Shown one piece after another: positions 2,888 to 4,708 of a DNA stretch of 4,708 bases. This DNA is from a virus (Duplodnaviria > Heunggongvirae > Uroviricota > Caudoviricetes), in the IMG/VR virus record IMGVR_UViG_3300000292_000114; one strand, given 5' to 3'. A model generated the notes under the pieces. It made no database searches. It was given only the letters and a program-made list of their open reading frames with translations, and was not told the DNA's origin. Each line of letters starts with the position of its first letter. The stretch's first letter is position 1. The position numbers and the translations under genes were made by a program.

Positions 2888-3636
2888 ATGAAAACAATCC
2901 ATGACATCCGGCGGTCTAACGCCAGAAAACTGAGAGATGGTGTTGGCGGGAATTCTTCCTTTGCCACTATGATTGATCGCGAGCCAACCCAGACCAGCAG
3001 GTTTATGGGAGATGGTGCTACTAAAAATATCGGTGACAGCATGGCACGACACATCGAAAAATGTTTCGACCTGCCTGTCGGATGGCTCGATCAAGAACAC
3101 CAGACAACGAACATCACAAAAAAACCTGATGTTTCAATCACTAATAAACAAATCACATTAGTCCCTGTCATATCATGGGTACAGGCCGGAGCATGGAAAG
3201 AAGTTGGATATTCTGAGGTTGATTTGAGCACAGCAGAAACGTATCCCTGCCCTGTACCCTGTGGGGAAATGNNNNNNNNNNNNNNNNNNNNNNNNNNNNN
3301 NNNNNNNNNNNNNNNNNNNNNNNNNNNNNNNNNNNNNNNNNNNNNNNNNNNNNCTTGCGGGTGATAGGTGATTCAATGATTGATGAGTACCGCCCGGGAG
3401 ACATGATTTTTGTCGATCCTGAAGTACCTGCCTGCCACGGTGACGACGTTATTGCATTGATGCACGATACAGGTGAAACCACCTTCAAAAGGTTGATAGA
3501 AGATGGGACACAGCGTTATCTCAAAGCGTTAAACCCAAACTGGCCTGAGCCTTACATTAAGATCAACGGTAATTGCTCTATAATTGGTACTGTGATTTTC
3601 TCAGGAAAACCAAGAAGATACAAAATCAAAGCCTAA
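2888..3636 (+). CDS. cI-like prophage repressor, LexA/S24 peptidase family (two segments 2888-3271 and 3355-3636 separated by an 82-nt N-run)
   Basis: Track ORFs 2888..3364(+) and 3355..3636(+). N-terminal part has ...VISWVQAGAWKEV (Ala-Gly autocleavage-like motif, compare lambda cI HVQAGMF). C-terminal part has VIGDSMIDEYRPGDMIFVDPE (Ser nucleophile) and TFKRL (Lys). The two parts are in different frames if the Ns are length-preserving (span 749 nt, not a multiple of 3). Confidence 0.65.
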
Positions 3637-3671: not shown

Positions 3672-3788
3672 ATACTTGATAATATACCTTTGAGATACAT
3701 AATGTACCCAAGAGAAACAACAAACAGGCAGGACGCCCACGAAGTAGCCGCCTGGGGCATATGAAGTCCAGGATGATTCGTTAGCAAC

Positions 3789-3811
3789 AAAAAAGCGCCC
3801 TATAGGACGCT
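3789..3811 (-). terminator. Candidate rho-independent terminator for the convergent DUF1311-like gene
   Basis: On the minus strand: stem AGCGUCC / GGGCGCU (one G-U wobble) with UAUA loop, followed by UUUUUUG (plus-strand A-run 3789-3794). Lies about 27 nt after the minus-strand stop at 3841-3839. Confidence 0.45.
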
Positions 3812-3838
3812 TCGCTCTTTAACAATCTGGATGACTTA

Positions 3839-4351
3839 TTACTCAGATTTGAACTTTGGTTCTGGCAAAAGAGGAGGAGTTGAGTCCTCGAATCGTAGCC
3901 AGTGCTCCCAGATATCGTGGGATTGTAATTCCAGAAGACCAATTTGACGTGATGCAACTGCAGTGCCAGCTATAGTTCCTCCTGCATAATCAACCTGGAC
4001 GGACTTTGACGCTTTCTCAATTAATTCTGTCCAAGCTTCACTTTCCGCGTTAAAAGAAGCAGTTAATTCCTGCAGACGCTGTGGATCATCCTTGTTGTCT
4101 TGTTTCAAACGATTCAGGGCGGCCACCGAATACTTATTCTTAACCCAACTAACCTGAGCTAACTGAACTCTCTGACAAGCGTCCATATCAGTAGTTGTTT
4201 CCTGAGGCATATCAAAGCAGGAAATAAAAAAAGTCTCAACACCATCATTTAGACTACTGCTCGGCTGGTTCAAAGCATCAGAAGCATTGGATGCTATCGG
4301 TATTATCAGTGCTACCGACAGAATCAAACGTTTAACATAAATCGCTCCCAT
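3839..4351 (-). CDS. Secreted (Sec signal peptide) DUF1311 / LprI-like protein, putative periplasmic lysozyme-inhibitor-type accessory (moron) gene, 170 aa
   Basis: Track ORF 3839..4351(-). AGAGGGGA Shine-Dalgarno 7 nt upstream of ATG at 4351. N-terminus MGAIYVKRLILSVALIIPIASNA|SDA has the n/h/c regions of a signal-peptidase-I substrate with no lipobox Cys. Mature part has a Cys pair (C46, C60) and YAGGTIAGT...RQIGLLEL, which I recall as DUF1311-like. Hand-counted 60-nt blocks give about 40-47% GC, lower than neighbours. Confidence 0.55.
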   Translation of the reverse strand: MGAIYVKRLILSVALIIPIASNASDALNQPSSSLNDGVETFFISCFDMPQETTTDMDACQRVQLAQVSWVKNKYSVAALNRLKQDNKDDPQRLQELTASFNAESEAWTELIEKASKSVQVDYAGGTIAGTAVASRQIGLLELQSHDIWEHWLRFEDSTPPLLPEPKFKSE

Positions 4352-4635
4352 TTAATTATCCCCTCTAAGAACAGAGTCATCCAGATTAGCCGAATCCTTG
4401 TTGTTGGGGAATAACCAGGCCCACCTCGCCTGATGTGGCTAAAAGCAGGCACATAACAGCTAAGTATTTTCAACCAGAGAGAATCCTTAGCGTTGTGGTG
4501 AATGCGGCTCAGCGCACGCGGGTTAAGGTTGAGGCTGACAGTCGACCTTCTGTGGATACCCACCCGCCTGGTGTGCAACCTTCGCCAGGCACCGGGAGGC
4601 ACCCGGCACCACAACTTTATGCTGTGTGTAGTCCT

Positions 4636-4682
4636 GGCGGTACCAGCTTGTACCCTTGCTTCCGGCTGGTACCGCTCTTTTT
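4636..4682 (+). other. Perfect 11-bp inverted repeat GCGGTACCAGC-N17-GCTGGTACCGC followed by TCTTTTT (terminator-like hairpin or protein-binding palindrome)
   Basis: Arms at 4636-4646 and 4664-4674 are exact reverse complements. T-run at 4678-4682. The loop contains CTTGTACC, the same half-site as the immunity operators. Confidence 0.35.
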
Positions 4683-4708
4683 ACAAAACAGAGAAGAGCA
4701 TCACCGGA

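Follow-up and report, generated by a model that had tools for sequence, protein, structure and literature searches.

The closest described relatives of the element studied here are the prophage-encoded small RNAs (sRNAs) of the STnc100 family, among them EcOnc27 (sRNA103) of the Shiga toxin (Stx) phages of enterohaemorrhagic Escherichia coli. Eleven family copies are transcribed in strain EDL933, one of them confirmed by Northern blot (PMC5331693), and EcOnc27/sRNA103 binds Hfq (PMC7873438; PMC12711010). PasD1 and PasD2 of enteropathogenic E. coli E2348/69, encoded by prophages in the late region near Q and lpxR, show Hfq-dependent stability and have partners in data from ligating and sequencing interacting RNAs (RIL-seq; PMC8550237). 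They are reported to be structurally homologous to STnc100, and a shared ancestry of PasD and STnc100 has been proposed (Zhu, Shabalina and Storz, bioRxiv 10.64898/2026.05.13.724894). The late operon is the home of canonical copies, which follow Q or stx and precede the lysis genes in sense orientation, in our loci as in the literature (PMC7873438; PMC12370729). We analyzed a 4,708-nt stretch of phage DNA (IMG/VR record IMGVR_UViG_3300000292_000114; hereafter the window) and found on its plus strand, at 4459-4682, a structured RNA that is very probably a divergent member of this STnc100/PasD/EcOnc27 family. It occupies a different place, the early-left leader of a lambdoid prophage.

The window is the immunity region of the prophage, and its segment 4352-4708 is 100% identical to E. 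coli UTI89 and to many other chromosomes of extraintestinal pathogenic E. coli. Of 5426 complete E. coli genomes, 1814 contained the locus at a coverage of at least 80%. Positions 4380-4708, which the initial annotation had singled out as a GC-rich, structured region without a coding sequence, make up most of the ~470-nt gap that separates a minus-strand accessory gene from yfdP.

Family identity and fold of the RNA

A permissive Rfam scan matched STnc100 (RF02076) at 4462-4684 on the plus strand with 45.4 bits (E 9.6e-8), along model positions 1-206 of 206. The homologous sites in SfV, ST64B, 118970_sal3 and phiES15 match the model as well, at 35-41 bits and likewise below its threshold. The consensus helices of the family (closing stem, H1, H4 and H5) and its strands GGUGAAU and CACCGGGAGGCACCCGGCACCA (a 22-mer at 4591-4612) were all found at 4492-4615 (Table 1). 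Exact copies of this 22-mer occur in the canonical family, in at least 120 viral contigs. From these we took 83 unique cores, which have in common P1, an unpaired AAU, H1, a short P2, an insert that varies, H4 and H5. The window RNA also resembles STnc100/EcOnc27/sRNA103 in its 3' intrinsic terminator, its home in a lambdoid prophage and its sense orientation in a phage operon; its tie to PasD is indirect, through STnc100. Only the plus strand folds better than its shuffles (z -3.6, 0/200 shuffles as stable; minus strand, z -1.2), and the Rfam scan and folding of both strands thus bear out the suspicion of a structured RNA.

Helix H1 has 5 bp, a 1-nt bulge and a UNNGC loop throughout the family, and the canonical CCCCC/GG.GGG is replaced by GCGGC/GC.CGC in the window. 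RNAalifold on 38 sequences recovered an A-U/G-C exchange (17:17) at one position of P1 and a CG/GC exchange in H1. Base pairs were counted in an alignment of 14 sequences of the clade with the window's H1, over the helices P1, H1, H5 and the pseudoknot described below. In this alignment 94.9% of the cells were paired, against 87.2% in shuffles, and none of 500 shuffles reached the observed value. Covariation was 0.271 versus 0.138, and pairing fell to 28-45% when the partners were slid by 1-3 columns. Both partners had changed in four of the five pairs of the pseudoknot, in three pairs of P1 and in two of H5. In H5, CCGGG/CCCGG becomes CCUGG/CCAGG or UCGGG/CCCGA with the AGGCA loop untouched, and this compensation marks out the AGGCA loop and GGUGAAU as parts that do not vary and are probably recognized. 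Covariation in the aligned sequences thus supports the pseudoknot and helices P1, H1 and H5. MAFFT did not bring H4 and P2 into one register, and their support comes from per-sequence parsing.

The pseudoknot is formed by the H4 loop and a strand downstream of H1, and it is missing from the structure line of the Rfam match. Nearly every family member has 6-11 nt after H1/P2 that are complementary to the H4 loop, and this complementarity persists through at least 12 different sequence pairs. Examples are AAGGCUG/CAGCCUU in phiES15 and, in others, CUGGUG/CACCGG, CCAGUC/GACUGG, AUCAGC/GCUGAU, GUGAUAC/GUAUCAC and AGACUGACAAA/UUUGUCAGUCU. Duplexfold energies were too noisy as a test and were replaced by column counts and by a comparison of helix length with shuffled loops. 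The helix had a mean length of 6.5, compared with 4.3 for shuffled loops; 17 of 34 sequences reached p<0.05, and the combined Fisher p of 2e-16 is indicative only, since the sequences are related. In the 14-sequence alignment the pseudoknot pairs were 95.6% paired. A local hairpin (4525-4532/4542-4549), preferred in single-sequence folding, is a competitor of the pseudoknot in the window. The pseudoknot and the compensatory changes in H5 are new structural points for the family.

Upstream of the core, the block 4421-4458 is nearly identical in SfV and in the Cronobacter phage phiES15 despite differing flanks. Its CAUAAC can form pairs with GUUGUG, bases 1-6 of the P1 5' strand, which makes it a possible anti-P1 strand. 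This extension of P0 appears in the folds of all clade members and in the minimum free energy structure of 4421-4690. The place of P0 itself is filled by hairpins of unrelated sequence in ST64B, phiES15, mEp460 and four metagenomic relatives, among them L022, L060 and L070.

Downstream of the core, a single-stranded linker leads to an intrinsic-terminator-like hairpin. The perfect 11-bp inverted repeat with a T-run seen in the initial annotation is this hairpin: its 11-nt arms (4637-4647/4665-4675) are 100% complementary and extend to 13 pairs, including two G-U pairs, followed by CUCUUUUU. It has a folding energy of -23.7 kcal/mol (z -4.4), and none of 200 shuffles was as stable. A simple terminator scan missed it since the loop exceeds 8 nt. 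Almost all canonical relatives have a strong terminator 20-45 nt after P1. The same hairpin is found on its own in mEp460, cdtI and Stx2c phages, pointing to a separate module, and the linker is kept in ST64B, 118970_sal3 and phiES15 though their terminators differ. The proposal of a plus-strand sRNA ending at the hairpin is thus matched by an STnc100-type fold with a terminator behind it. A sequence at 4674-4685, CGCUCUUUUUAC, looks boxA-like by eye only and overlaps the terminator tail.

Other motifs listed for the region resolve into parts of the fold. The nested stem GCCTGG/CCAGGC is hairpin H4. The GGCACC(C)GG repeats are present, although they are not independent elements, as they are both strands of H5 and the 3' strand of P1. 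The direct repeat at 4392-4409/4481-4498 exists with 78% identity but is not conserved: homology to SfV starts at 4421, so the first copy falls outside what is conserved, and the second is made up of the P0 3' arm and the P1 5' strand. The repeat is probably due to chance or an insertion scar. Across homologous prophages, then, the structured elements are kept and the direct repeat is not. A GC content of roughly 60% holds for the core at 4490-4617 (63.3%) but not for 4380-4708 (54.4%) or 4462-4684 (56.5%); the neighboring gene has 43.5%.

Table 1. Features of the RNA, its surroundings and related loci. Positions refer to the window unless a locus identifier (L number) is given.
Feature	Position	Strand	Description or basis
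Conserved upstream block	4421..4458	+	Small hairpin GCCUG 4428-4432/CAGGC 4446-4450, then CAUAAC 4452-4457; homologue comparison, folds
Hairpin P0	4459..4491	+	Arms 4459-4471/4479-4491; -12.3 kcal/mol, z -4.6; clade-specific; directly 5' of P1
STnc100-like core	4492..4615	+	Rfam match, RNAalifold (38 sequences), pair counts (14 sequences)
P1, closing helix	4492-4500 with 4607-4615	+	GUUGUGGUG/CACCACAAC
H1	4504-4519	+	5 bp, bulged A4516, loop UCAGC
P2	4520-4522 with 4563-4565	+	GGG with CCC; by analogy
Pseudoknot 5' strand	4525..4531	+	AAGGUUG; pairs with H4 loop
H4	4566-4573 with 4583-4590	+	
Pseudoknot 3' strand	4576..4582	+	CAACCUU; 7 of 9 nt of H4 loop
H5	4592-4606	+	CCGGG-AGGCA-CCCGG
Conserved core single strands		+	GGUGAAU and CACC...GCACCA
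Single-stranded linker	4616..4635	+	UUUAUGCUGUGUGUAGUCCU; conserved within clade
Intrinsic-terminator-like hairpin	4636..4682	+	4636-4648/4664-4676, 15-nt loop, U-tract 4678-4682
5' arm of 22-bp perfect stem	4681..4708	+	3' arm beyond window (L001/UTI89 6400-6421), just 5' of yfdP
LexA-family repressor (ymfK-like)	2888-3636	+	
Candidate early-left promoter	3676-3703	+	TTGATA-16-CATAAT, 10/12; TTGACA in SfV; directly 3' of repressor's terminator
Accessory gene	3839-4351	-	Weak LprI/DUF1311 match; 3' of repressor's terminator
cro-, ymfL- and replication-type genes		-	
DicF-dicB spacer fold	L138 7719-7855		~190-nt spacer; 34.4 bits against STnc100
C4/isrK tandem	L002 1226-1414, L004 909-1097, L006 436-624, L007 323-511, L008 625-813	-	

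Conserved position and relatives

The early-left strand carries the element, in sense orientation, in the window and in SfV, ST64B, phiES15 and 118970_sal3, with the repressor gene on one side and the first early-left gene on the other. The annotated repressors of these phages are of at least three types, and the downstream gene is yfdP-like or, in phiES15, kil. Past the window end, the plus strand continues with yfdP, yfdQ and yfdR up to xis-int, which is the early-left operon, and not with a protein gene spanning the stretch. The idea of a long structured 5' leader fits this place at the head of the operon. The description of the element as lying upstream of a DUF1311-like gene is misleading in its emphasis, as the RNA points away from the gene and other phages have other genes in the slot. 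ST64B has an unbroken leader of ~770 nt from the early-left promoter (PL) to sb37, with no inserted gene.

Compared with canonical STnc100, the window RNA has the extra 5' hairpin P0 and no promoter match at P1, and it stands beside the repressor, outside the stretch from the late promoter, Q or stx to the lysis genes that the literature gives for the family. Its recognition adds the early-left leader to the range of the family, previously the late region. The family is widespread, with the eleven copies in EDL933 and a copy next to stx2. A more divergent core in mEp460 (L007 2852-2994) keeps P1 and H1 with a changed H5, and was missed by both BLAST and Rfam; the reading of mEp460 as a phage without the core is therefore wrong. 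This copy overlaps an opposite-strand CDS annotated as hypothetical protein F853_gp37. We also observed pairs of STnc100-type cores in tandem on the same strand of some viral contigs, ~484 nt apart in L027, L044, L058 and L078, 267 nt apart in L083 and 922 nt apart in L020.

A scan of species-representative genomes found 21 loci with the window's H1 variant, in Escherichia, Shigella, Klebsiella, Raoultella and Enterobacter and in two gut metagenome-assembled genomes labelled Veillonella and Collinsella. The largest group is the spacer from the DicF terminator to dicB in Qin-type prophages, which is identical in E. coli K-12 MG1655. The Qin spacer shares with the window H1 (GCGGC-UNNGC-GC.CGC), P1 and a pseudoknot (CAGUUAA/UUAACUG), and the dicB operon, which encodes a cell-division inhibitor, is likewise of early-left type. 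It differs from the window in having no terminator, a dicB ribosome-binding site ~20 nt after P1, and CCUGG/CCAGG in H5. This ties the family to a K-12 locus where genetics is easy. The structure in the DicF-dicB spacer appears to be unannotated; a section of a preprint on dicBF regulation describes no structured RNA there.

Further similarities exist with the early-left leader of phage lambda (nutL, an RNase III site and the tL terminators), which has the same place on the genome map and likewise a terminator to be overcome. The two differ in that no N gene is annotated in the window phage. In lambda an RNase III site precedes N, and the long perfect hairpin that starts at the window end and stands before the first gene recalls such a site. 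The region containing it (L001 6330-6430) folds at -45.8 kcal/mol (z -5.6), the 22-bp stem covaries in ST64B, and its three-way inner loop is conserved. We consider the stem a candidate RNase III processing site.

Function and competing explanations

The explanation we favor, a little above even odds, is that the element is a terminated leader or sRNA belonging to the STnc100/PasD family, which binds Hfq, and that its terminator gates the early-left genes as well. Leftward transcription would produce a stable, structured RNA made of P0, the P1-closed core with H1, H4, H5 and the pseudoknot, and the single-stranded linker, ending at the intrinsic terminator. By homology with PasD/EcOnc27, this RNA would associate with Hfq and act in trans through its unpaired linker or loops, and the linker is a candidate seed or Hfq-contact region. 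The hairpin at 4636-4682 would serve as the RNA 3' end and as a barrier that shields the early-left genes from transcription not modified for read-through. The data show a conserved plus-strand fold with a pseudoknot, a strong terminator behind it and a fixed place in front of the early-left genes; the transcript ends, Hfq binding, trans-action and read-through route are what we infer, and we hold this functional reading with about even confidence. The predicted early-left order is then the PL candidate (3676-3703), the gene-insertion slot, the STnc100-like RNA, the terminator, the long hairpin and yfdP-yfdQ-yfdR...xis-int.

Several observations weigh against this explanation. The STnc100 match lies 1.6 bits under the 47-bit curated gathering threshold; part of the shortfall comes from H1, where the model marks non-standard pairs though compensatory changes keep the helix. 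At the usual place of the family promoter, the window has a 6/12 match, compared with at least 9/12 in 24 of 79 relatives and in 2 of 79 shuffles. Canonical upstream matches of this strength, such as TTGACA-16-CATAAA, have a -10 whose end lies 3-14 nt before GGUGAAU. Consensus scans of 4360-4708 and a permissive scan of 4360-4520 found no plus-strand sigma-70 promoter, though a weak or activated promoter could escape them. Given P0 and the conserved upstream block, the transcript probably starts upstream of 4450, and the RNA may occur solely within the PL transcript and be missing from lysogens. A convincing target of the linker was not found in a 12-kb prophage stretch, where one 9-mer was the only match and was not near a start codon. 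Finally, the H1-variant relatives (the Qin spacer and those of Klebsiella, Raoultella and Enterobacter) are without a terminator and stand 20-35 nt before a start codon, and look like cis-acting 5' untranslated regions (5' UTRs) and not free sRNAs.

The main rival is a cis-acting structured leader. The element would then be a regulatory domain of the 5' UTR that, through binding to a protein, to a ligand or to RNA polymerase, controls read-through, processing, stability or translation of toxic early-left genes, with any free sRNA as a terminated by-product. We regard this as a real but clearly less probable option. It is consistent with the sense position at operon heads, kept whatever the downstream gene, and with the H1-variant relatives directly before dicB or other small ORFs. 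The window's clade is also without its own promoter match and has, with P0, a strand able to sequester the P1 5' strand, and RNAs that bind ligands or proteins typically have, as here, a pseudoknotted core in which unpaired bases are invariant. However, canonical relatives are autonomous promoter-RNA-terminator units, terminators swap as modules, and no conserved alternative pairing joins the core to the terminator. mEp460 retains the operon with a much altered core, and no ligand or partner is known. A terminating riboswitch was rejected: there is no conserved exclusive pairing between aptamer and terminator, and terminators differ between close relatives. One local 7-bp alternative (CCUGGCG 4633-4639/CGCCAGG 4584-4590), noticed by eye, is not kept in phiES15. 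Going further, one could picture the STnc100/PasD fold not as a simple base-pairing sRNA but as a pseudoknotted sensor or protein-binding domain that phages set before host-toxic genes (lysis cassettes, kil, dicB and the early-left operon). This is a speculative proposal to which we give a small chance; if true, the abundant Hfq-bound 'sRNAs' would be terminated leaders of such a domain, and the K-12 DicF-dicB spacer a member and a tractable model.

The lack of an annotated N-like gene in these phages, together with the strong terminator ahead of the early-left genes, invites comparison with putL and putR of phage HK022. HK022, a lambdoid phage without N-type antitermination, encodes these RNAs in cis in its early leaders, and the window element is likewise on the PL transcript. 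As a put-like processive antiterminator, it would bind the transcribing polymerase and permit read-through of 4636-4682 and later terminators. We find this improbable to a high degree. put consists of two stem-loops of ~70 nt (PMC9378689) directly after the promoter, whereas the window core spans 124 nt, combines several helices with a pseudoknot and lies ~780 nt from the PL candidate, and membership in the put class was rejected since the core shares neither sequence nor architecture with putL/putR. Canonical relatives have their own promoters and lie just 5' of lysis genes, a place in which constitutive antitermination would be lethal to the lysogen; the Qin copy is downstream and not upstream of the DicF terminator; and there is no second copy on the rightward promoter (PR) side. 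A GGAUGA motif shared with putL/putR is present on the same transcript, in a separate PL-proximal box (3716-3785; see below).

The remaining alternatives do not involve a functional RNA. The initial annotation had offered the early-left promoter/operator region or a recombination site, and a promoter for the divergent DUF1311-like gene would be another DNA-level site. GTAC motifs at 4640, 4650 and 4669 in the hairpin recall rightward operator (OR) half-sites, and a minus-strand promoter-like match with its -35 in the 4421-4458 block, found only in SfV and phiES15, suggests that part of 4352-4460 may be the divergent gene's promoter. But compensatory changes that keep the pairing indicate selection on RNA, which speaks against a recombination site, and the window itself has no promoter match in 4360-4708. 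The spacing and orientation of the GTAC motifs are unlike TGTACC-N5-GGTACA, and the hairpin is shared by mEp460, which is annotated with an XRE-family repressor; on these two grounds the palindrome was ruled out as an operator. Moreover, the early-left promoter and operators are likely at 3676-3719, outside 4380-4708 and ~700 nt upstream. We consider a DNA-level site unlikely, if slightly less so than a put-like element. Least probable is a small protein gene. ORFs of 95-96 aa exist on both strands and some phage records call them hypothetical proteins, but neither the 96-aa minus ORF (4324..4614) nor the 95-aa plus ORF matches Pfam, indels of 1 and 5 nt break the frames among homologues, and substitutions follow base pairs. 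RefSeq itself marks the ORF as a pseudogene ('frameshifted hypothetical protein'). The initial view that 4380-4708 has no convincing coding sequence therefore stands, and recognition of the RNA corrects a broken annotation, which arose because the RNA scores just under the Rfam cut-off. An antisense partner of the AgvB/AsxR type was also rejected, with no Rfam match at E<=1 and minus-strand folds no better than shuffles. Taken as a terminated STnc100-type RNA, the element is of modest novelty, being a sub-threshold member of a known family in a different place; its pseudoknot, the early-left clade and the DicF-dicB link are worth following.

Neighboring elements of the immunity region

The candidate early-left promoter is overlapped by operator-like repeats, TATACC-N5-GATACA (3683-3699) and TGTACC-N5-GAAACA (3703-3719), which resemble the OR sites TGTACC-N5-GGTACA at 2804-2820 and 2854-2870. 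Runs of N mask 583-719, 846-982, 1709-1718 and 3272-3353 of the window and cut into the repressor gene and into ORFs of the replication region.

Adjacent to PL, a leader box at 3716-3785 (ACAGGCAGGACGCCCACGAAGUAGCCGCC...GUCCAGGAUGAUUCG) occurs once per locus and has no Rfam match. It is kept in SfV, ST64B and phiNP and in phages of Yersinia, Pectobacterium, Klebsiella, Salmonella and Aeromonas with different repressors. The GGAUGA motif that it has in common with HK022 lies in both putL and putR. In the window, the terminator of the inserted gene directly abuts this box.

Between the box and block 4421-4458 lies a slot occupied by a different minus-strand gene in the window (3839-4351), in SfV (L002 ~3790-3962) and in phiES15 (L005 ~3100-3353). 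The slot is a hot spot for the insertion of accessory genes, antisense to the early-left transcript, and ST64B has none. The window gene matches LprI in Pfam with 17.3 bits, compared with a cut-off of 22, and the slot ORFs of phiES15 and SfV are unannotated in the records of those phages.

C4 antisense RNA and isrK were not seen in the unmasked parts of the window. They occur in tandem, both above their Rfam cut-offs, within the early-right part of SfV, ST64B, 118970_sal3 and mEp460; a Stx2c phage has them at the corresponding site, which is unannotated. In the annotated phages, genes at these sites are labelled 'transcriptional regulator' (similar to antirepressor in mEp460), and we interpret the arrangement as what may be a P1-type c4/ant immunity module.

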